NCBI RefSeq assembly: GCF_044704955.1
Contig: NC_091985.1
Span: 225,866,001 to 225,930,000 of the forward strand
DNA length: 64,000 nucleotides
DNA from: Pristiophorus japonicus
Lineage: Eukaryota
Reading direction: 5' to 3'
Made by a program: the position numbers and the translations under genes. Below the pieces are notes generated by a model. It did no database searches. It was given only the letters and a program-made list of their open reading frames with translations, and was not told the DNA's origin. Below are positions 36,369-50,277 of this stretch, piece after piece (position 1 is the first letter of the stretch; every line of letters starts with the position of its first letter).

Positions 36369-36573
36369 TCAGTTGTTCTCACCTGGGGACTGCATGTCAC
36401 AATCGGCCCCAGCGTGCCTGAGCTCGGCACTAGGCCCCGCCCCCTTGCTGCGCTGCTATTGGTTGGAGGATTCGTTGCCAGCCCATCCCACCCACCTCCA
36501 CCAGGGCTCTTCCTATTGGTCTGAGCTCCCATCAGTCAGGCCAGACAACGAGATCACATGCTGTTGTTCGTCT

Positions 36574-37211
36574 TGTAAGAGAAAATTGGCATTAGGGGTA
36601 TAAGCGAAATAAGGTTTAAAGTGCCGGCTTTTACATTGGCTCAGCAAAAGGGGCAGCTGGTCTGTGGCTGACCTCACATTCTAACATACTCCAGCACCAA
36701 GGACCCAGAGGTCTATGATTCAACATTGATGTATAATTGATGTACCAAAACAGATAACATTAAGGTACGTCCAGTCCGACAAGATAAGACTCTGTGAAAA
36801 GACTCTAAACAGACTTTTAGGCGCTACGTACGATCAGCAAATACTAACCCAATGAGGTCATCCCAGTTAAGGTCTAAAAGTTGCCTTGAGATCTTGGTCT
36901 GTCAATCCAAAATATTACTGATAAGGTAACCCAATTAGAGATCGAAGGAGGTCGTACCGGGGGGGGGGGGGGGGCGAAGGGATCTATGAAATGTACAAAT
37001 GATGTACAATTTTGCTATTCAGGGAATATCTCCAGTCACAGGTGGCTGTGATGCGAAGTGTTCCCGGACGTCCGTAATTAAAGATCGTTATACCTTGCCA
37101 TCCGTCTCCGTCTAATACTTCGAGGGCTGCTACATGGGTTGGGACGAGCGTCGACCCTTTATATCAAAGGGCCCGCTCGTGGGAAGAGAAATCTTCCCAT
37201 TTTCCCCTTCA
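36574..37211 (+). repeat. 5' LTR (638 bp)
   Basis: TGTAAGAG...CCCTTCA, a direct repeat of 46636-47271. Roughly 30 substitutions by manual count (~5%). Confidence 0.95.
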
Positions 37212-37214
37212 ATT

Positions 37215-37232
37215 TGGCGCTGCGAGCCGAGT
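37215..37232 (+). promoter_or_regulatory. Primer-binding site, tRNA-Ser-like; major splice donor GG|GTGAGT follows at ~37273
   Basis: TGGCGCTGCGAGC begins 4 nt after the LTR. It is within one mismatch of the complement of vertebrate tRNA-Ser 3' ends over 13 nt (recalled, not searched). Confidence 0.6.
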
Positions 37233-37669
37233 ACAAGAACTTCCCGAATGGAGCAATGATCCAGCTGTTGGGGTGAGTATGTTTAATTTACCACCTTCGA
37301 GTTAGAGCTGAAGCATTGTAAACCGGGAGGGAAGGACATCTGTGCAAAGAACTATCTGTAGCGGGTCCCGGAGGGACAGAGACAAAGGACAGGGACAATC
37401 TAGGGGTGGGAGGGGGAATAAAAGGCATAATCTGAGACGCGCGAGTGTAGGAAGCACGACAGGGCGAGGGTACGATGCAAGGGAAGACATATGGACGAGA
37501 CCTATTGACCCATGTGGTACGAGCGCACGGTGCAGGGAGGAGACATATTGACCTGGAAGCATGGCAGTACGGCTGTACGACGCCAAGGGGAGACATATAG
37601 ACGACGTCCTGCATCCCAAGCACGAATTAAAGGGAATGCCCAAGATCCCTACGCCTTCCCCAGAATAAG

Positions 37670-39161
37670 ATGGGTAACCCAGCTAGTAAAAAGGCGAATA
37701 AAACCAATGAGGGAGCAGAAATCCAGGCCAGCAAAAAAGAAGAAGAATGTAACTGGGGACCAAAAGGGTCTCTAGTAAATTTGCTGGGCAAAAAATACGC
37801 AACATTAATGGAAGAAATGAAACGGAAAGGGTGGCAGCCCACGGATACCCCGATAGACAGAAAAAATGGTGGAATAGTCAGACCAAACACAAGGTTGAAA
37901 TGGCCCAAGTAATTATCCTTACCTGTTACCAGGAACAGGTAAAAGAAATAGATACCCATACTGAATTGATTCAGGAATTAAAAACTAAAATAACGGAATT
38001 AGAAAAGGCTGCAAAGGAGAATGGACAAACCCTACAGTGCACATCAGCAACACCCGACCCAAAAATAACCCCCCCAAATATACCCCTCCCTGAAAGAGAT
38101 ACAGGCAGGGGAGCCCCAAGATAATAACGGGACCCAGGAAGGGCCCCCAACATATGACAGGTACGTACAGGCAGCTCCCGTACTTACTACCACTCTCCCT
38201 GCACACGGGCAACAACCCGGTCATGTCACCATACAGGAAGTTCCCCTCACCCCACATGAGAGGCAGACACTGCTAAAAGATTTACCCACCCCCAAACCAA
38301 ATAGCAGAAATACAGAATTCCGGCAAAAGGTTGAGGAAATGTTCGATGCACGTAATCTAACCCCGGGAGACGTACACGGTCTGGTGAAGGCCAAAACCGG
38401 TAATGTAAACTGGCAAAGGGCTACCCAAGCCGTGCAAAACGGGGACTGGATGATGATGGGAAACCCGATGCACAGCAGATACTAGACCTCAAGCAGGGGA
38501 TGGATGAATGTTGGGGACCAATAAGAACTAATTGGAGCAAGATATTAAAAGTAATCCAAAAACCAAACGAGGGAATATGGAGAGCGGAAATGGCTTGAGT
38601 ACAAGGACTACTCCGGTGCTAACAACCCCGATAAAGAGGACGCGGCATTTTTAGAAATGTTTAAGGATGGACTGAGGGAGGAGCATCAAAAAATAACTAA
38701 GCTGGGATTCAAGATAGGAGATGATTATGATGAAATCTTAGAATGGGCACAAAACGTGGAGGAATTAAAGGCCGAGCAAAAGGAAAAGGTAGCCAAGATA
38801 GTGGCGGCAGCATTAGTGACAGGAGAAAAGGAAGATAGGGGGGGATCTCTGCGAAGCCCCCTTGACGTGTTACACATGTCATCAGTGCGGGCATTTTAGC
38901 AGAGATTGCCCGCAAAGGGAGGCTGAAAAAGGGACGGATAGACCCAGGTGCCGTAATTGCAACAAACTGGGACACATAGCAAAAAGATGCTGGGCAGGAA
39001 AGGGCCCCCAGCAAACCAGAAAATAGACAGGGACGCCCATCACGCGTGAGGAACTGATGTTTGTCGGAGAATTTCCAACACTGCCAGCCCCATCCCCTAT
39101 GGAGCCCACACCCTCTAACGAGGAGCTCATCAACTTACTTAAATTGGCCAGTACCCGCTAG
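37670..39161 (+). pseudogene. gag: Proviral gag (frameshifted)
   Basis: Starts MGNPAS (MGxxxS myristoylation pattern). Capsid-like MFKDGLREE. Two CCHC knuckles CYTCHQCGHFSRDC and CRNCNKLGHIAKRC (38867-38990). TAG at 39159-39161. Confidence 0.8.
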
Positions 39162-40090
39162 GGGTTACCGGCCCCCGAGGGAAGGTTGGGACGGCCAACG
39201 CTAGATGCCCGTATGTTTATTAGTGCAGTTTTAGTGGGCCGGCAGTGCAACATGCTCGTGGACACGGGAGCGTCAGTATCCATAACTAATCTAGACCTCC
39301 CTTACAAGAATCAGGGTTAATATTCAAGGGATAGGAGGAGAATCCAAAAAAGTGACATTAAGTGAAGTAGTACTATTAGAGATACAGGGATTAATGATAC
39401 CCACCAAATTTTGGTGTGCCCTAACCTGGAATGCACCATACTAGGGATAGACACCCTGAGGGTACTTATAGACCCCCAGCGTAATCGGATAATATGGAGA
39501 GAGAAACATCAGACCCAACAGAAGTTCGATTGTCCGGGACATCATGGGCAGTGGTGGACAACAATGGACAAGTCAGGAAAAGGGGACCCTTAGAGGGAAA
39601 CCTATCGGCTCAGGTAGAGGAATTGGTAGCCCTCACCGAAACATTAAAACTAGCAGCAGGGAAAAGGGTCAACATATACACCGATAGCCGTTACGCCTTT
39701 GGGGTGGTACATGATTATATGACTGCTTGGAAGAGGCGGGGGTACGTGACACCGGGAGGGGGACCCATTAGACATGAAGAGATAGTTAATGAATTGGTAG
39801 AATCATCCCTCCTTCCTCAGGAATGTGCAGTCATAAAAATTAAAGCACATCTAAAAATCACGGACAGGCACCAGCAGGAAAATGCCTGGGCAGACAAAGC
39901 TGCCAAATAGGCAGCTGAATTAGATATGACTAGTAACGCCCTGATTGGCTCATGTATTACCCAAACGGAGGAAGTAAACATACTCAAGGTAGAGGGAGAA
40001 TCCACCCCGCAAGAAACAGAAGGGTGGGAACAAAACGGAGCTAAAAGGGGGGGGGCTGATGGAGTTTGGAGGAAAAATGAAAATGTAGTG
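39162..40090 (+). pseudogene. pol: Proviral protease followed almost directly by RNase H (RT missing) and pre-integrase linker
   Basis: LVDTGAS (D at 39261) and ILGIDTL, then WAVV, SAQVEELVAL, IYTDSRYAF, IKIKAH and NAWADKAAK. Confidence 0.85.
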
Positions 40091-42826
40091 GGCGGCAAAA
40101 ATCTGGACGCTCCGCTAAGCTTGGCGGAGCTGACCGGTGCCCTCGACCAGCTCTCGAGGGGAAAAGCCCCGGGGCTGGACGGGCTGACCGTGGAGTTCCA
40201 CAGGGCGTTCTGGGACGTCTTGGGGGTGACTACGCGCGGGTCCTGGGGGAAAGTCTGGCGACCAGGGAGATGCCCCTCTCTTGGCGCAGGGCAGTCATCG
40301 TCCTGCTGCCTAAGAAAGGCGATCTCCGCCTACTTAAGAACGGGGGCCCGGTCTCCCTCCTCAGCACAGATTACAAAATCTTCACCAGGGTCATGTCTGC
40401 TCGCCTTGGCGCCGTGCTGGACCACATGATCCACCCCGACCAGTCCTACACGTTCCCGGGCCGGACAATCCACGATAACATCCATCTGGTCCGGGACCTG
40501 ATCCACCATTCCCAGGAGGCTGGTCTGTCGGTCACCTTCCTATCCCTAGACCAAGAGAAGACGTTCGACAGGGTGGATCATGAATATCTGTTCGGAACTC
40601 TGCGCGCTTTTGGGTTCGGGACGCATTTTATCGCCTGGATCCGACTTTTGTATGCCGCCGCGGAGTGTCTGATTAAGGTTAACGGGTCCTTGACGGCGCC
40701 CCTTCGCTTTGGGAAAGGGGTGCGCCATGGATGCCCCATGTCCGGCCAGTTATATGCCATCTGCGTGGAGCCTTTCCTGCGCCTCTTGCGGACGAGGTTG
40801 ATGGGACTGGCTCTGCAAGGGCCAGGCGTGGAGGTCGTCCTCTCGGTTTACGCTGATGACGTGCTCCTCATGGTCGAGGATCCCGTTGACCTGCGGAGGA
40901 TGCGTGAGTGCCAGGAGATTTACTCGGCTGCATCCTCCGCCAGGATCAACTGGGAGAAATGTTCCGGACTCCTGGTGGGTCAATGGCGGGTGGACTCCCT
41001 GCCAGAGGAGCTCAGGCCTTTTTCCTGGAGCACGACCCATCTCCTCTATCTGGGAGTCTACCTTAGCTCCGACGAGGAAGCCTGGCCGGCGAACTGGCAA
41101 GAGCTGAAGGCCAAGGTCGCCGCTCGCCTAGGGCGCTGGACAGGACTGCTCCGAGTGCTGTCCTACAGGGGTCGAGTGCAAGTCATAAACCAGCTGGTGG
41201 CCGCTATGCTGTGGTACCAGCTGGTCACTTTGACCCCTCCCCCTGCATTTTCCGCCAAGATACAGAAGAAGCTGGTGGACTTCTTCTGGAACAACAGGAA
41301 GCACTGGGTCTCTGCCGCGGTCTTGAGTCTCCCGCTTAGGGAGGGCGGTCAGTCGTTGGTGTGCGTCAGCACCCAGCTAGCGACTTTCCGTCTTCAGACC
41401 CTGCAGAGATACCTTCACGTTGAGCCCCCTCCTAGGTGGCGTGCGCTGGTGACGTATTTCTTCTGCCAGCAGTACAGCCTCAATTATGACATGCAGCTCC
41501 TGTTTGTGAACTTGGGGGGCATCAGGATCGCCATCCAGGGGCTGCCTGTCTTTTACCAGGAACTCATCAGGGTCTGGAACAAAGTCTCCACCAAGCGCAG
41601 CTCTCCGCCGGCTGGAGTGGCGGCTGTCCTGCAGGAGCCGCTGCTCGGGAATCCGTACCTCCACGACCGAGGTTTCAGGTGGCAGTCGGACGAGAGGGCT
41701 GTGGCTGGTGAGGTGACCAGGGTCAGGGACCTGCTCGATGGCGGAGGAGCGGGCTGGATGGCGCCAGACATGCTGGCACGGCGCCTAAACTGGGCCGACG
41801 TCCGGCGCACGGCCGATGCCATCGAGTCGCTAAAAACAGCTCTGGGCCCTGACTCCGTTAGGTGTGTCGAGGAGGCTCAAGCATGCAGGGAGATCCCTCG
41901 TCCGGACAGAATTCTTCATCGGCGCCAAGCCCCGGAACCTCCCTTGGGAGCTGCCGCCTCACAACTTGAGCAACCTCAGGGAAATCCCCTCCGTGCCTTT
42001 CAGTTCTACGCAGAGGGGTTTCCTGTATGGGCTGCTCCTGCACACTCTCCACCTTGCCATCCTCGCCTGCCGTCCGGACACGCCATGGCGTACCATCTTG
42101 CCGTCCGGAGGAGACGGGGGTCCCCGATGGAGTGCACTCTACACGAGAGTCCTCCCACTATTTATTGGGGACTTGGCCTGGAGGGTGGTGCACGGAGCAG
42201 TCCCGTGCAACAAATTTTTAAGCCGGTTCACGAGCTGCCAGGCCGCCTGCAATTTCTGCGGTCTGGAGGAGTCCGTGTTCCATGTTTTTATGGAATGTGC
42301 AAGGTTGCAGCCCTTATTCCACTATTTGAAGGGGCTGCTCCTCAAATTCTGGTTGCACTTCAGTCCCACACTCCTGATCTTTGGACACCCTCTGCAGAGG
42401 GGAGCAGGTAGGTCCGAGGGCCTCCTCGTAGGACCTCCTGGGCACGGCCAAGGGCGCCATCAGCCGGTCCAGGCAGCAGGCAGTCGAGGGGGTCGTTCAG
42501 CCCGACTGCCTGCCTCTCTTCCGCCCGCGGTTACATCTGAGCCAGGGTGTTCCTGGAGATGGAGCACGCGGTGTCCACCGGTACGCTCGCGGCCTTCCGC
42601 GAGAGTTGGGCGCCGGAGGGACTGGAGTGCATCATCACCCCCGGCAACCAAATTTTAATTTGCTTTTATATGTTTAAAGTTTATTTGGTTTATTGTGCCG
42701 GGTTTTAGTGTCCCTTCCCTTTTAGCCAGAGGGCACTTGTATAATTTGTGGTTTTAGTGCCCCCCCCCCCAAAAAAAAACAAGGGGCACTTGATTTAATG
42801 TTTAATTGTCTTCAACCCAAAAGAGT
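40091..42826 (+). mobile_element. 5'-truncated Tx1-like (L1 group) LINE inserted in proviral pol
   Basis: KAPGLDGLTVEF, PVSLLSTDYKIF, SLDQEKTFDRVDH and YADD, plus C-terminal CNFCGLEESVFHVFMEC. GC-rich relative to the provirus. T-rich 3' UTR. Boundaries approximate. Confidence 0.9.
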
Positions 42827-43847
42827 TGTAATGGCCCCGGAATGTATCCAACAGAACCTACTGAGTCTCTACCACAGATACACACATACCGGTAAGACCG
42901 GCATGATGAACTCCGTGTCACGCTATTGGTGGTGGAAAGGAATGGGTAGAGGCATAGAAAACCATTGTAGGAAATGTATAACATGCGCTAAATACAACCC
43001 GGGGAAAAAGATAAAGGTCCGGCTGGGACACCAAACTCGCCCAAAGGGACCCTGGGAAGCCTTACAAATAGACTTTACTGGGCCACTGCCTAGCCAAAGG
43101 AGAAAAATGTACTGTCTGGTAATAATAGACCAATTTACAAAATGGGTAGAAGCCTTCGCCACTAGAAACTGCACCGCTGATACAGTAGCTAAGATCCTGG
43201 CCGGGGAAATTATACCCATGCCACTACAGTTGGACTCAGACCAGGGTACACACTTTACGGGAAAAATCATGAAGCAAGCTTGTGCCCTGTTAGGGATTAA
43301 ACAAAAATTCTACATCCCATACCACCCTGAGTCTCCCGGATTGGTAGAGCGAATGAATAGGACCTTAAAAATAGCACTGGCTAAGGCAATCGAGGAGACC
43401 GGACAGGGGTGGGTTGAGTTACTACCACGAATCATAATGAAATTAAGAGTTACCCCTAACCAGACTGACCCGCTTTGAACTAATGACAGGAAGAGCCATG
43501 AAGCTGCCAGAAGTGCTGTTACTGGAAGTGATGACGTAGGGCCCTACAAGGATAAGATACGGAGGTTCGTGATAGAACTCTGTAAACAATCACATGAATT
43601 ACGAGCACAAGCCAGAGACCAACAAATTATTAGGAATGTAGAAAGGGACACGAAGGAACAAAGGGGTCAGGTACCTCAAATAGGGAGCTGGGTCATGGTA
43701 AAGATAAATCCTGAAAGACCCGAATTCTCACCAAAATGGACCGGACCCCACCAGGTGATTATGGTTAGTGACACATGCGCTTGCATAGACATGGGAGGTG
43801 ATGGCAAATGGAAACACTGGACCCAGTTGAAACGATTTGGATCCTAA
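42827..43847 (+). pseudogene. pol: Proviral integrase (disrupted near 43478)
   Basis: H-X3-H and C-X2-C zinc motif. DDE triad in LQIDFTG, LDSDQGTHF and LVERMNRTLK. C-terminal PKWTGPHQV...WKHWTQLK. Confidence 0.92.
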
Positions 43848-43919
43848 CCAACCGGTGGCCACCGGAAAACGTTGCATTTTACAGGATCCTATCCCTCCTT
43901 GGAGCCGGAACATCCACTG

Positions 43920-46493
43920 ATGAAGAAAGTAGCGGACCTCAAGGCCTATATTATAAGACGTCGTAAAACATTAGCTGTGATCCCGATTCAAAAACACTAA
44001 TGTTGGTAGTCGGCATAGCGTTATATTTTAATTGTAGCATTGGACTAATGGGCATAACACAACTTAACAGAGATTTCAACCAACAGTGTGGGTGGACCAA
44101 TAACAAGGGAATAACATTAGCAGTAAATGAGACCGCAGTGTGCTTCGTGTTAGAAGAACGAGGAAGTTGCACTCATAGGGAGGGGATACAGGTACGGTGT
44201 GCACCCGTCTTCACTCAATTCTTGGGAAGGCCACACAGGGATACCAGGTGGAAGAGATGTCCGGCCTCCCCGTGTGTGGGTACGGACTAGTGGTGTTGGG
44301 ACATCCTTGTCCGAGATAGACCCCCTACCGCTGCCCCGACAACCACACTGGGGACAACTCTTCACAGCACAACCACGCAAGCCCCCCCCCCCCCATATGC
44401 CCGTCCATAAAGACTGGAGCCAAAGGGGGGCTAGTAATAAAGGAATCTAAGGAAAGGATATATTTTGGGGTGCGTCAGCGATTACTTACGGTAGTCCTAA
44501 ACCTAACAGATATCATCCTTCCTAGCTTCTGTGGGAATGAAACTATAAGTTTCCCGGGATGGTGGGACTGACCTATCAAGAAAGACTGGATCAACTGGGC
44601 TTGTATTCACTGGAGTTCAGAAGAATGAGAGGGGACCTCATAGAAACGTTTAAAATTCTGATGGGTTTAGACAGGTTAGATGCAGGAAGAATGTTCCCAA
44701 TGTTGGGGAAGTCCAGAACCAGGGGTCAGTCTAAGGATAAGGGGTAAGCCATTTCGGACCGAGATGAGGAGAAACTTCTTCACCCAGAGAGTGGTGAACC
44801 TGTGGAATTCTCTACCACAGAATGTAGTGGAGGCCAATTCACTAAATATATTCAAAAGGGAGTTAGATGAAGTCCTTACTACTAGTGGGATCAAGGGGTA
44901 TAGTGAGAAAACAGGAAGGGGGTACTGAAGTTGCATGTTCAGCCATGAACTCATTGAATGGCGGTGCAGGTTAGAAGGGCCGAATGACCTATTCCTGCAC
45001 CTATTTTTCTATGTTTCTAAGTCTATACCAGAAGCTGACGCAACGAATCCTCTACCCTGAGATTTAATGTCAGAAAGGGAATAGATCAAAGTCGAACAAA
45101 AAGGGGAATACTGGAAACACTAGGCTCGGGTTATGCGGCGGGGGTTGCAACATTGAATTCCAAAGACCTGTATGCAATAGACGACCTGTTTAACACCTTA
45201 ATGCAAATCTTAAGGGGTTTATTGGGGAGGGAAATAGATAGCTAAGCCCTACAAGCGCTGTTGGGAAATGGCGCGGAAGGGGAACTGTTAGGAGTGGCCC
45301 ACACATTACAGGAACATGCCAAGATCATAAATTTTATCCACGTAATGGGGGAACGACCTAAGTAAATGATTACAAGCTGAGATAATTTGCTCTGGGTATG
45401 GGGCCTGGATACTGAGTGAGGTACAACATAACCTGCAGCAACTCCAGAATGGGTACATACCAGATTGGATGCCGAACGACATATTTAATAATTGGATTCT
45501 AGACAAAAACATGAACAACACATGCGAGGTACGAAGGAATAGTCACACATGGGTGCCAAAATGTAGATGTATTACTGGACATGTGAATATGATCGGATTC
45601 GTGTTATCAATACCACAGTATAACGTAACAAAGGGAGACCCCTTATACCAAACCGACAATATCGGTGAAGTAAGAAACCGAACACGGTTGCGTTACCATC
45701 AACCTCCAGACGGGTGATTAAAATTAACAATAGTACCAAAGGCATTGACATAACCGACTGCTATAAAAATAACCAAGTGGTTTTATGTCAAGGTACGCCA
45801 AGAATGACGGATGATGATTGCGGATTCCACCAAACAAACGGATGCATGCTGAGTATCACTCCTCTCGAACGCGATTCCGAAACAATCGCTGCTCCACAAG
45901 GGAATGGAGATTGGTGCGTGAACACAGGAGCAGCCAACCCGACGATTAAGACCAGGGGAGGAGTCACCCCCTGTGTCATCACCAACCCCAACTTGTGTTT
46001 CAGGCCCATGGGAAAAATAGACATAAATGGATACCACAAACATCCCGAGACAACGGAAATTATTCACGGAACGGTCACGGATACCCTCCGAGAAGGGTAC
46101 AAGGAGGCGGTATGGGAACCGCAAGGAAAACAGATACCCGAGTTAAGTGAGGAACAACTACAATTGGTGCAAGGAATCCAAAACCAAAGACGACAGTATA
46201 TCCGACTGATGGAAGAATCAGACAACCTACAAAGAGACACTAACGCGATGCTGGCCGACCAGCCTTGGTACTCAAAACTGTGGAACATTGGACTTAATAT
46301 TCAGATCCACCCATGGATAAGGATTATATCACACGTACTTGTAGTAATACAGGGCCTGGTCCTGATGGTACTGGTAGGGTTAACCTGTGCACGAATTAAA
46401 CAGGGCAAACGACACATTAGGGCACGCACTATGATTAAGACAATATGGGACGAAAATTTTAACAGTCCTGCAGGAAGGACTTACCTTATATAG
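43920..46493 (+). pseudogene. env: Proviral envelope glycoprotein, paramyxo/pneumovirus F-like; interrupted by a CR1 fragment
   Basis: Acceptor TTTTACAG at ~43883 and hydrophobic signal LMLVVGIALYF. Furin site RTKR (45093-45104) followed by GILETLGSGYAAGVATLNS. Cys-rich ectodomain, heptad region and TM IISHVLVVIQGLVLMVLVGLTC. Confidence 0.85.
44551..45017 (+). mobile_element. CR1 3' fragment inserted in env, TAAGT duplicated
   Basis: PGMVGLTYQERLDQLGLYSLEFRR through a CTATGTTTC tail. TAAGT on both sides. Confidence 0.9.
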
Positions 46494-46635
46494 CCCTGCG
46501 GAGAAGTCACAGGAGGTCCTGAAGTTTGGGAGACGGCCACCCAGGCGAACGGACATATCTGGAACTTGCCCACAGGGAAGTAGTTTCCGGGGAATATGGC
46601 CTACTTGGCATATAGCCAGGGGCCAAAGCGGGAAT

Positions 46636-47271
46636 TGTAAGAGAAAATTGGCATTCGGGATATAAGCGAAATAAGGTTTAAAGTGCCGGCTTCTACATTG
46701 GCTCAGCAAAAGGGGCAGAAGGTCTGTGGCTCACCTCACATTCTAACATATTCCAGCACCAAGGACCCAGAGGCCTCTGATTCAACACTGATGTACAATT
46801 GATGTACCAAAACATCAGATAACATTAAGGTACGTCCAGTCCGACAAGATAAGACTCTGTGAAAAGACTCTAAACAGACTTTTAGGCGCTACGTACAATC
46901 AGCAAATTCTAACCCAATGAGGTCATCCCAGTTAAAGTCTAAAAGTTGCCTCGAGTCCTTGGTCTGTCAATCCAAAATATTACTGATAAGGTAACCCAAT
47001 TAGAGATCGAGGGAGGTCATACCCGGGGGGGGGGCGAAGGGATCTATGAAATGTACAAATGATGTACAATTTTGCTATTCAGAGAACAACTCCACTCACA
47101 GGTGGCTGTGATGCGAAGTGTTCCCGGACGTCCGTAATTAAAGATCGTTATACCTTGCCATCCGTCTCCGTCTAATACTTCGAGGGCTGCTATGCAGGTT
47201 AGGACGAGCGTCGACCCTTTATATCCAAGGGCCCGCTGGTGGGAGGAGAAACCTTCCCATTTTCCCCTTCA
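46636..47271 (+). repeat. 3' LTR (636 bp)
   Basis: Direct repeat of 36574-37211, preceded by a purine-rich tract. Confidence 0.95.
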
Positions 47272-48638
47272 GCCTCGGCCCCAGGTGTTGGGCGCGGCTG
47301 AATCCGCTCCCGCCGACTCCCGGGTTTGGATTTTACTTTAGTCTCTCTCTCTCTCTCTCTCCCTCGTCCCCACTCCCTGCACTGTTTCTCCGCCCAACCT
47401 CAAGCTCACTCGGTGCCGCAAACTCACTTTCCGCCGGTGATTCGGCCTCCCGACCCAGGAGGCCCCTCGCCGTTGTCCTGCCGACCCCGAGCCCAGCGCG
47501 CAGCAGAGGTCTGATTGTTGGTCTGGATACTGCTGCCTGAGCACGCGCGGGGCCCAGCAGGTCCCCTCCATATTTAAAGGGACATTGTCTCTGTTGCTGT
47601 GATTAAAGGGACAGTGACATTGTGCTGGACTTTGATTTCAATGCAGAGAGGAGGGAGAGCGGGTTTTGGAGGAACAAAAAGGCAAGATCCAAAATTGTCT
47701 ATTCTGAATTTCTCTCCTGCACTTACAGGAACTAATGATGTGACCGTATTACAAGGGGAGGATTTGAAGGAGGGAAGCTCAAAGCAATCATCACGTTTAG
47801 ATCTGGGGAGGCACAAGTGCAGTCACACTGAGGAGAGACCATGGAAAGGTGGGGACTGTGGGAAGAGATTCAGTCACCCTTCCAAGCTGGAAAGATAGCA
47901 ATACAGTGACACTGGAAAATGTCTGTTTAACTGCTCCGTGTGCAGGAAGGGATTTAGTCAGTCAGGACATCTGCTGAGACACCAGCGTCGACACACCGGG
48001 GAGAGACCGCTTGCCTGCTCACTGTGGGAAGAGTATTAAACAGTCTACCAACCTGTTGTCAAACGAGCGGGTTCACTCCAGTGAGAGACCTTTTCAGTGC
48101 TCTCACTGCGAGAAGAGTTTTAAAAGCTCCAGCGACCTGGTGCAGCACCAGCGCTTTCACACTAAGGAGAGGCCGTTGACCTGCTCCAAACGTGGGAAGG
48201 GATTGAGCCATTCTTACACTCTGTCTGGACCAGCGAATTCAACACTGACAAGAGACCCTTTAAATGTCCCGACTGCGAGAAGAGCTTTAAAAGCACCGAG
48301 GACCTGAGGGAGCAGCAGCAAGTTCACACCTGGGAGAGGCTGTTCAGCTGCTCAGTGTGTGGTAAGGGATTCGCTCTTGCATCTTCTCTTGGTGTACACA
48401 TGCTTGTCCACACTGATGAGAGGCCATTTAAACGTTCCACTATGAGAAGAGCTTTAAAAAGTCCAAGCACCTGAAGATTCGCACCACGGAGAAACCGTTC
48501 AGAAGCTTTCACTGCGGCAAGACCTTTACACAATCACCCACCTTTCTGCAACTTGAGCACATCCACAACGGGTAGAGGCGGTTCCCCTGCTCAATGTGTG
48601 AGCCTGACCCGCCGAGACACCAGCGAGTTCACAGGTGA
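47272..48638 (+). pseudogene. C2H2 zinc-finger pseudogene (exon 1 remnant, intron, decayed finger exon from ~47730)
   Basis: Donor-like CGG|GTTTGGAT at ~47324 as in the paralogues. Acceptor CTTACAG at ~47728. Frameshifted fingers (FQCSHCEKSFKSSSDLVQHQRFH). Confidence 0.8.
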
Positions 48639-49629
48639 GCACAGTCTTTCTTTGCACGACGGGAAGTGTCAGAGGGAGGAGCTAAGTGTTGCCACAGCAT
48701 GGACAGAGACAGATTTAAGCTAAAAGACAGAATGCTTGAAGTTTGGAATGATAATACCCCAAGTCAGGAGATGACCCTTTACCTAGATAAGGGAGGTGGT
48801 TTCTAAGAGACCCACATACCTAAACACTGGGTAACACTCGAACCTGCTTAGGCAGTAGACTTGTTGGCAACAAGGTTCCGACTGCATGAAAAGCTCTAAA
48901 AGCTCCAAGGACCATTGACGAGAGCTGGTTCAAATGCTCTCGTTGCAGGAAGAGGTTTACGTCATCATCCAGGCTTCTGAAACACGTGCCCATCCACACC
49001 AGGGTGAAGCAGGTCCCATGTTCATTGAGTCAACAGCGATTCACGGGTCAGTCTGACCTGCTAGAATCATCCAATCACAGAAACTTACAGCACCGAAGGA
49101 GGCCACTTGGCCCATCGTGCCTGTACTGGCTCTTGGGCAGAGCACTGCTGCTTCCCACCAACGTTCCCTTTAAGCTGTGCGACCGCACAGCGCTCCGGGG
49201 ATTCCCCCGCAGCCGGTTTGCCAGCATTTCAATGCAAAGCCCTGCATGCGCGGTATTATGAATGGCCTGCCAAAATAAATCCGAGGGAACAGTGCCCCGT
49301 GGGCCTCCCACGTTCTACCTTCCGTGAGCCCATGCAAGTCTCTTCTCGCACCAAGTTCCGTTCACCCATCACCCAGTTAAGCATGGCTTCGATTTTAAAA
49401 TTCTCATTGTTTTCAAATCCCGCCATGGCCTTGCCCCTTCCCGAAAACCCAGCGAGAGCCTCGCCCGTCCCTATCTCTGTAATCTCCTGCACCGCAAAAA
49501 ACAATCTTCCCTCATTTTTTTTTCGCATGGTCCCTTTAAATTTGTTGCTTTTACCAGCGGCAACAGCTGGTGAGCGGCCTACTGGGACTTCCCAATCGAT
49601 GCGCAGCTACTCAGCGCAGGGGGAACATG

Positions 49630-50277
49630 GCTCCCAGGGCAGGTACAGCACGGGGTTAGATACAGAGTAAAACTCCCTCTACACTGTCCCATCAAACACT
49701 CCCAGGGCAAGTACAGCACAGAGTTAGATACAGAATAAAGCTCCCTCTGTACTGTCCCATCAAACACTCCCAGGGCAAGTACAGCATGGAGTTAGATACA
49801 GAGTAAAGCTCCCTCTACACTGTCCCATCAAACACTCCCAGGGCAGGTACAGCACGGGGTTAGATACAGAGTAAAGTTCTCTCTACACTGTCCCATCAAA
49901 CACTTCCAGGGCAAGTACAGCATGGAGTTAGATACAGAGTAATTCTTCCTCTGCACTGTCCCATCAAACACTCCCAGGGCAGGTACAGCATGGGTTAGAT
50001 ACAGAGTAATGCTCCCTCTACACTGTCCCATTAAACATACACAGGGCAGGTACAGCACGGGTTAGACACAGAGTAATGCTCCCTCTACACTGTCCCATCA
50101 AACACTCCCAGGGCAGATAGAGCACGGGTTAGATACAGAGTAAATCTCCCTCCACACTGTCCCATCAAACACTCCCAGGGCAGGTACAGCATGGATTACA
50201 TACAGATTATAGCTCCCTCTACACTGTCCCCAACAAACACTCTCAGGGCAGATACAACACGGGTTAGATACAGTGTA
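49630..50277. repeat. ~65-bp tandem repeat, ~10 units
   Basis: Unit CTCCCAGGGCAGGTACAGCACGGGTTAGATACAGAGTAAAGCTCCCTCTACACTGTCCCATCAAACA. A remnant resumes at ~53570-53590. Confidence 0.92.

Follow-up and report, generated by a model that had tools for sequence, protein, structure and literature searches.

A degraded shark provirus outside the lokiretroviruses with an envelope of predicted paramyxovirus/pneumovirus F fold

Introduction

Whether an envelope protein (Env) resembling the fusion protein F of paramyxoviruses and pneumoviruses marks its bearer as a lokiretrovirus is the question raised by a 64,000-nucleotide stretch of the Pristiophorus japonicus genome (GCF_044704955.1, contig NC_091985.1, forward strand 225,866,001 to 225,930,000; here the window, in which all coordinates are given). 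At 36574-47271 the window holds a dead provirus in gag-pro-pol-env order, with long terminal repeats (LTRs) that are 95% alike, two insertions of long interspersed nuclear elements (LINEs), and its reverse transcriptase (RT) lost. A sequence-only reading of this DNA had recognised an F-like env, and had placed the provirus in or near the lokiretroviruses (Loki), possibly extending their host range to cartilaginous fishes. In those parts of the literature drawn on here, for which papers are cited by accession throughout, lokiretroviruses are defined by an RT clade sister to all other retroviruses, four scenarios for the origin of their F-like Env are left open, and the hosts listed include no cartilaginous fish, as that reading had stated (Wang and Han, PMC7947760). 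The window copy, having lost its RT, is without the marker that defines lokiretroviruses. Foamy virus Env is described as F-like, with orthoretrovirus Env put in a subclass apart from F (PMC11468914), and epsilonretrovirus Env has been called structurally distinct (PMC3758190). The elephant shark carries endogenous retroviruses (ERVs) related to snakehead retrovirus (SnRV) and to epsilonretroviruses (Han 2015, PMC4422223), the SnRV clade of Orthoretrovirinae (PMC12193657) being clade Huo of PMC6001957. Non-Loki, SnRV-related retroviruses of cartilaginous fishes are thus known already, and the interest here lies in the occurrence of an F-type Env across lineages. We consider it highly probable that the window copy is a dead germ-line retrovirus that falls outside the lokiretroviruses, in a so far unclassified lineage of fishes and sharks with likely kinship to SnRV, and that it encoded an Env of predicted paramyxovirus/pneumovirus F fold.

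Results

Predicted fold of the envelope

The naturally open Env of a sister copy (L022, 730 amino acids), rather than a rebuilt window gene, was used as the fold query, and its AlphaFold (AF2) model was made from an alignment of 33 rows. The core blocks of the model have pLDDT values of 70-83, and the N-terminal 190 residues are under 50. Foldseek returned 88 chains at E<=0.001, and its top PDB matches were the F proteins of respiratory syncytial virus (RSV), human parainfluenza virus 3, Newcastle disease virus and henipavirus (E 1e-10). In VIA, run against 48,161 chains, ranks 1-9 were all F (Z 8.7-10.3; for the RSV F row, Z 9.1, rmsd 5.5, 277 aligned), followed by two foamy Env chains (Z 7.9 and 7.7), and two further F rows (6.6 and 6.3); no coiled coil scored above 6.0. 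The F matches span the beta-rich part of the model (residues 196-609). As predicted, the protein contains F domains I-III, and a strand and a helix from the N-subunit are built into its core. A structure-free comparison of ESM Atlas features also placed Fusion_gly first (0.94, 211 shared features); the top match in BFVD was A0A384ZVF2 (928 amino acids). Modelling therefore predicts a paramyxovirus/pneumovirus F fold for this Env, and the F-like, non-gamma character claimed from the sequence is borne out by the agreement of Foldseek, VIA and ESM Atlas on F. Pfam gave no TLV_coat or Foamy_virus_ENV match in window pieces or sister Envs, and its only fusion-type signal was a weak Baculo_F match (E 0.0011) on one of 32 homologs; an errantivirus/baculovirus-type reading of the provirus was rejected.

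Organisation and start of env

The env peptides quoted in the sequence-only reading, the RTKR site, the Gly-rich peptide, the heptads, the transmembrane segment (TM) and the tail were all located in the window. The env stretch GGLVIK...GNETIS reaches ~44550 and the LYQKLTQRILYP stretch picks up past the CR1 fragment; sister copies read through both flanks in a single frame. The fragment is 93-97% identical to a CR1 at window 52.8-53.3 kb. Besides this insert, the gene has suffered about four frameshifts (near 44380-44410, 45055, 45350 and 45705) and three in-frame stops (near 43965, 44289 and 45244), which amends the sequence-only reading. The Gly-rich peptide stands just after RTKR and is followed by the Cys-rich block, the second heptad, the TM (~46320-46390) and a tail of ~34 residues. 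As had been claimed, the post-cleavage part is long, at 458 amino acids in a sister copy, where it contains neither CX6CC nor CxxC. An F2-like segment with strand, Cys and helix is also present, but the pre-cleavage subunit measures ~250 amino acids and so is no short F2, because a Cys-rich domain of ~155 amino acids and a Thr-rich linker, which had been missed, lie ahead of the F2-like part. This Cys-rich domain gave no fold in the model (pLDDT under 35) and no ESM Atlas match.

The ATG at 43920, taken earlier as the start of env, is out of the env frame, which instead begins at an acceptor-like site ending at 43884. The frame has no start codon of its own, the first Met being residue 257 in both of the open sister frames, and 19 of 21 stretches have an acceptor-like site ahead of a hydrophobic run. 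Sixteen stretches cover the part just behind the primer-binding site (PBS); in 11 of them an ATG lies 17 nt ahead of a donor-like site, while the spacing is 19 nt in one and the donor is altered in four. The donor-like and acceptor-like sites share phase. From sequence and phase, a leader exon is predicted to supply, by splicing, the start of Env and the beginning of its signal peptide. In the mechanism that we propose, this short leader exon would be spliced onto env to give the signal peptide, and furin cleavage after RTKR would free a new N-terminal fusion peptide, which with heptad repeats HR1 and HR2 would drive membrane fusion as in F, the F2-like strand and helix being built into the fusion core. 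The N-terminal Cys-rich domain, on its Thr-rich stalk, would likely bind the receptor, a role that belongs to a separate attachment protein in paramyxoviruses.

Placement of the family by pol

The RT was taken from a sister copy (L028). Reference labels were assigned within the analysis, on natural records: two contigs (L049 and L051) were called Loki-type by their PFG motif, Env and tree position, and their Envs have sub-threshold Fusion_gly matches. A record of 10,688 nt (L111), the length of SnRV, was labelled SnRV, its RT motifs matching the SnRV line in the supplement of PMC7947760. The other references were foamy viruses (L134-L137), gamma-type viruses (L115 and L119) and a walleye epsilonretrovirus identified by its cyclin open reading frame (ORF; L125). 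The length of the walleye record agrees with that of walleye dermal sarcoma virus.

An RT tree built under LG+G4 from 43 of the 55 available rows, after removal of near-duplicates, two delta-like rows and two gypsy rows, recovered the published branching order of gypsy, then Loki, then all others. In it the RT of the family falls within the non-Loki retroviruses (100/99), outside class I (100/98), foamy viruses and ERV-L, and in a fish/shark group (91/92) in which SnRV is not included. Approximately unbiased (AU) tests rejected a union with Loki (p=0.0009 with four Loki-type rows, 0.0013 with two), and also rejected membership of class I (p=0.0004) and of the foamy viruses (p=0.027), the latter two groups and the SnRV-like group considered below having been named after the tree was seen. 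Quick mixture-model trees, one with 14 short or redundant rows dropped, concur on the Loki question. The RT shares 60% identity with a Mustelus-cluster Pol, 45% with SnRV and 35-39% with the Loki-type, walleye, gamma and foamy sequences; in the PDB, murine leukaemia virus RT was the best match (332 bits, vs 187 for foamy). SnRV was not among the matches of a longer Pol search. The sister copy has the RT motif PQG, where the Loki consensus and the Loki-type contigs carry PFG. Integrase (IN) groups with fish ERVs (87/92) and not with SnRV, and is not part of the clade formed by Loki IN (100/99) in a tree whose references had no CGIN1. When the genome was searched with Loki RT nothing close was found, the best (3 of 150 scored, themselves 150 of 160,815 candidates) being 37-38% identical and PQG-bearing.

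On these sequence comparisons, the family belongs to an unclassified fish/shark RT group that lies outside the Loki clade and is likely related to SnRV. A class I (gamma/epsilon) ERV is ruled out by the RT tree and AU test, the lack of CX6CC and TLV_coat, and target-site duplications that are mostly 5 bp, vs 4 bp in class I ERVs (PMC4299795, table 1). A foamy virus is ruled out by the AU test, the lack of a Foamy_virus_ENV match and the presence of two Gag zinc knuckles. ERV4, described with a Gag without zinc finger and no GPY/F equivalent (PMC4299795), is ruled out by the two CCHC knuckles and a weak MLVIN_C match, the trees themselves being without an ERV4 reference.

The same genome holds another family of retroviral RTs outside class I (L147-L149), with PQG in two of three sequences and 46% identity to the RT studied here. 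Two stop-ridden genome fragments (L150 and L151) match only Loki-type Env (27-35%), and within ~18 kb upstream of them the pol sequence is gypsy-like only; by their sequence they are possibly old relics of Loki-like env.

Reach of F-like Env among retroviruses

The best-scoring Env relatives beyond the family itself are Loki-type Envs. With the family profile, hmmsearch gave 69 and 62 bits to Loki-type Envs, 20 to SnRV, 17 to walleye, 1 or less to foamy and under 0 to gamma Envs. In HHalign the corresponding values were 98% for Loki-type, 94% for SnRV and 96% for walleye, with 5% for a foamy (L137) and 4% for a gamma Env, and the scores of 113, 68 and 82 for the first three compare with a shuffle maximum of 24 (5, 15 and 15 shuffles; 23 for SnRV). 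None of 100 shuffles reached the hmmsearch score of SnRV Env. For walleye Env one in 100 equalled the real score, which is weak support, and its link to the family therefore rests on HHalign, where the walleye Env (L125:5962-9648, with the cyclin ORF downstream) aligns over 341 columns from the F2-like start to the Cys-rich block. When the core of SnRV Env was modelled, Foldseek returned F (E 4e-6), whereas VIA gave mostly coiled coils, with a foamy Env at Z 7.4; this model is not independent, as it shares an alignment with the family Env model. The Env tree did not resolve.

It follows from the matches of SnRV and walleye Env to the family profile, and from the F-like Env of foamy viruses (PMC11468914), that an F-like env does not single out Loki and cannot serve to call an element a lokiretrovirus, as the sequence-only reading had done. 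F-like Env would then span the Loki, foamy and SnRV-like lineages and probably the epsilon lineage, and is likely to be more widespread among retroviruses as an entry protein than has been described. For SnRV-like and epsilon retroviruses, no report of such an Env was found in titles and abstracts, a search that did not cover subscription papers, and the portion of PMC12583693 drawn on names no such protein.

Copies of the family

In the 5.9-Gb genome the C-terminal env piece has at least 141 matches, a lower bound from 141 scored among 15,200 candidates. A full HMMER search of 1.84 billion representative sequences yielded 34 Env homologs, where a word-based protein search with Env found nothing. 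The env pattern is therefore not a chance one. Twenty sister stretches around env matches were picked, either because their frames were open over long distances or because they resembled the window copy closely; in none of the 20 were gag, pol and env all open. Ten copies form one subfamily, with a Kimura two-parameter distance (K2P) of 0.010-0.034 between their paired LTRs; in four copies nearer the window copy the distance is 0.045-0.072. The family would have spread in at least two waves, probably via reinfection, with the window copy decaying afterwards. Target duplications, judged by eye in 13 bounded copies, are 5 bp in eight, 4 bp in two, 5 bp with one mismatch in one and absent in two, including the window copy.

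Among named sequences, Mustelus and Heterodontus supply the nearest relatives by Pol. Among the 20 Env homologs (of 34) whose source was looked up, 16 are from cartilaginous fishes and three from frogs; the Env family spans sharks, a skate and frogs and is deeply diverse. Bamboo shark, Bombina and Pelodytes have full-length ORFs of the Env family that are listed as host proteins in the annotation (P0131, P0145, P0147), Bombina with three near-identical copies. N-terminal domains differ among homologous Envs (P0131, P0145, P0147 and L111), one being named Ig-like by UniRef, which suggests an exchangeable receptor-binding module placed before a constant F-like core.

Discussion

Several results weigh against the reading of this family as an SnRV-related, non-Loki lineage with an F-type Env. 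With regard to the fold, the L022 Env model has an overall pLDDT of 53.7 and a pTM of 0.37, and its TM-scores are 0.2-0.3 of the query, low because the domains are placed differently in the model, so that the fold is predicted and not proved. Pfam Fusion_gly matched none of six window pieces, two sister Envs and 32 homologs, and PDB sequence searches with Env gave no match. With regard to lineage, the RT evidence comes from sister copies, the window copy itself having none; an RT clade with SnRV was not recovered, though a broad SnRV-like group was not rejected (AU p=0.33); RNase H groups with class I-type RNase H (83/93), neither with SnRV nor with Loki; and Env scores Loki-type above SnRV Env (69 vs 20 bits). 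The family has two Gag zinc knuckles to the one of SnRV, and it has no 3' accessory ORF and a short tail, in contrast to the accessory ORF and long Env tail of SnRV, although the latter two are features of SnRV itself and not necessarily of its clade. Its Env is also shorter, at ~720 amino acids vs ~1,130.

Against these differences stand the RT identity to SnRV, the highest among named viruses, a leader exon before gag that in L111 is likewise in phase with a start-less env (by sequence and phase), an amber gag-pol junction, a homologous Env core, and a position outside class I, class II, foamy viruses and Loki. By description, lineage I of CmiERV in the elephant shark is similar, as a chondrichthyan ERV with env whose Pol clusters with SnRV (PMC4422223). 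It is possible, if somewhat doubtful, that the family is instead a lineage of its own, belonging neither to the SnRV clade nor to class I and having a mosaic pol with class I-type RNase H. This accords with the exclusion of SnRV from its RT and IN groups, with the grouping of its RNase H, and with its two zinc knuckles and Ser-type PBS; the deep nodes, however, are poorly resolved and do not reject the SnRV grouping, and the leader exon and Env are held in common with SnRV. The mechanism proposed above would be the same under either, and only the naming differs.

A recombinant origin, in which a non-Loki gag-pol acquired its env laterally from a lokiretrovirus or another F-bearing virus, appears unlikely but deserves weight. 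Env scores nearer to Loki-type than to SnRV Env, and Env swaps do occur in this RT group, as a fish ERV in it (L045:4089-5825) bears a gamma-type Env with CX6CC. Identity to Loki Env is nevertheless just ~19%, family members from sharks, a skate and frogs diverge deeply from one another, and SnRV and walleye Env share its layout, including a helix Cys that is missing from the aligned Loki-type Env. It is very improbable that long helices in a low-confidence model have produced a spurious likeness to F: the low pLDDT, the lack of Pfam and PDB sequence matches and the coiled coils returned for the SnRV model would be in its favour, but the F matches cover the beta-rich core and score above the coiled-coil rows, the structure-free comparison concurs, and there is a sequence bridge to Loki-type Envs that themselves have sub-threshold Fusion_gly matches. 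Least probable of all, and in our view scarcely tenable, is that the provirus is a lokiretrovirus or an immediate sister, since its F-like Env, the high Env scores with Loki-type, the tether in sister copies (RT_RNaseH_2, gone from the window copy) and the lack of cartilaginous fishes among listed Loki hosts are set against an RT, RNase H and IN that all lie apart from Loki, the PQG motif, the distant genome matches to Loki RT, and an Env with an extra N-terminal domain and no start codon of its own, unlike Loki-type Env. The position of pol outside Loki, with this env type, is essentially the outcome that the sequence-only reading had named as counting against itself, and an extended Loki host range does not follow; SnRV-related ERVs were already known from a cartilaginous fish (PMC4422223).

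This non-Loki family and Loki are nonetheless alike in having a homologous F-like Env with an RxKR site, fusion peptide, coiled coil and TM, and both lineages have a tether plus RNase H; in Loki-type Env its own signal peptide comes directly before the F2-like part, in contrast to the extra N-terminal domain and predicted spliced signal peptide seen here. The RNase H of Loki groups with that of foamy viruses, its IN is of the CGIN1 type, and some of its members carry an smc-like gene. With paramyxovirus/pneumovirus F and foamy Env the family shares the predicted core fold, the furin site and a long Cys-rich C-terminal subunit, but identity is 9-14% and the N-terminal domain ahead of the F2-like part is extra; the foamy leader peptide and inserted receptor-binding domain are also lacking. 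The walleye epsilonretrovirus, compared by profile alone, has an Env that aligns to the family profile within a frame of 1,229 amino acids, and differs in its class I Pol.

In the RT tree the family falls with neither Loki nor the foamy viruses, and its F-like Env is shared with SnRV and apparently with an epsilonretrovirus; this favours those of the four published scenarios in which such an Env is old in retroviruses, and these become testable by mapping Env type onto the Pol tree. One reading, to which we give slightly less than an even chance, is that an F-type fusogen was the ancestral envelope of Retroviridae, kept in Loki, foamy viruses, SnRV, the shark/frog family and walleye epsilonretroviruses, and replaced later and repeatedly by a short gamma/beta-type Env. 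If this were true, orthoretroviruses would be without a single Env class, and the epsilonretrovirus Env, long noted as "distinct", would be homologous to F and preceded by a variable receptor-binding domain.

The provirus and its surroundings

The locus is an ordinary dead copy (Table 1). Its two LTRs have 603 matches and 29 mismatches (K2P 0.054), which at rates of 2.2e-9 and 2.2e-10 (quoted in PMC4422223) corresponds to a loose range of ~12-120 million years; the date is uncertain, because the copy has no clean target-site duplication (36569-36573 vs 47272-47276), unlike most bounded sister copies, and decay or recombination between copies is possible. The PBS match to tRNA-Ser(TGA) is 18/18 in several sister copies; the complementary tRNA 3' end occurs 73 times genome-wide, and ARAGORN gives Ser(TGA) at two of four such loci. 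The two zinc knuckles of gag lie near 38865-38990 (Pfam zf-CCHC, 2 stretches, E 3.5e-10). The gap in pol removes RT, the tether and the start of RNase H, and is absent from sister stretches that hold that region. Sister Pol alignments break off and restart at the LINE boundaries (40087 and 42827), and the end of env lies ~140 bp from the 3' LTR.

Table 1. Coordinates of the provirus and of the elements inserted into it.
Feature	Position in window	Strand	Remarks
5' LTR	36574..37211	+	TG...CA, 638 bp
Primer-binding site, tRNA-Ser(TGA) type	37215..37232	+	16/18 in window copy, by-eye count
ATG-led short hydrophobic leader exon and splice-donor-like site	37256..37278	+	predicted, from sequence and phase
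gag, frameshift-broken; amber stop at end, in frame with pro	37670..39161	+	
Protease, broken	39162..39545	+	gap of ~500 codons directly after
RNase H remainder and integrase start	39539..40086	+	Pfam RNase_H E 3.4e-17
Non-LTR retrotransposon (LINE with RT) inside integrase	40087..42827	+	Pfam RVT_1 E 2.5e-33, 776-aa frame
Integrase: H2C2, core, C-terminal domain; one stop	42828..43847	+	Pfam rve, Integrase_H2C2, weak MLVIN_C
env 5' part: hydrophobic run, Cys-rich N-terminal domain, Thr-rich linker	43885..44400	+	acceptor-like site ends 43884
F2-like segment (strand, Cys, helix), split by CR1	44410..45104	+	RTKR furin site at end, 45093-45104
CR1 3' fragment in env	44551 to ~45016	+	short flanking duplication
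F1-like subunit: fusion peptide, HR1, Cys-rich beta domains, HR2, TM, short tail	45105..46493	+	
Polypurine tract	46619..46635	+	
3' LTR	46636..47271	+	

Arrays of C2H2 zinc fingers (84-bp repeats) flank the provirus at window 34.1-34.8 kb and 47.8-48.9 kb, and a tandem repeat with a unit of 67-68 bp, in at least eight copies, occupies 49563-50262.

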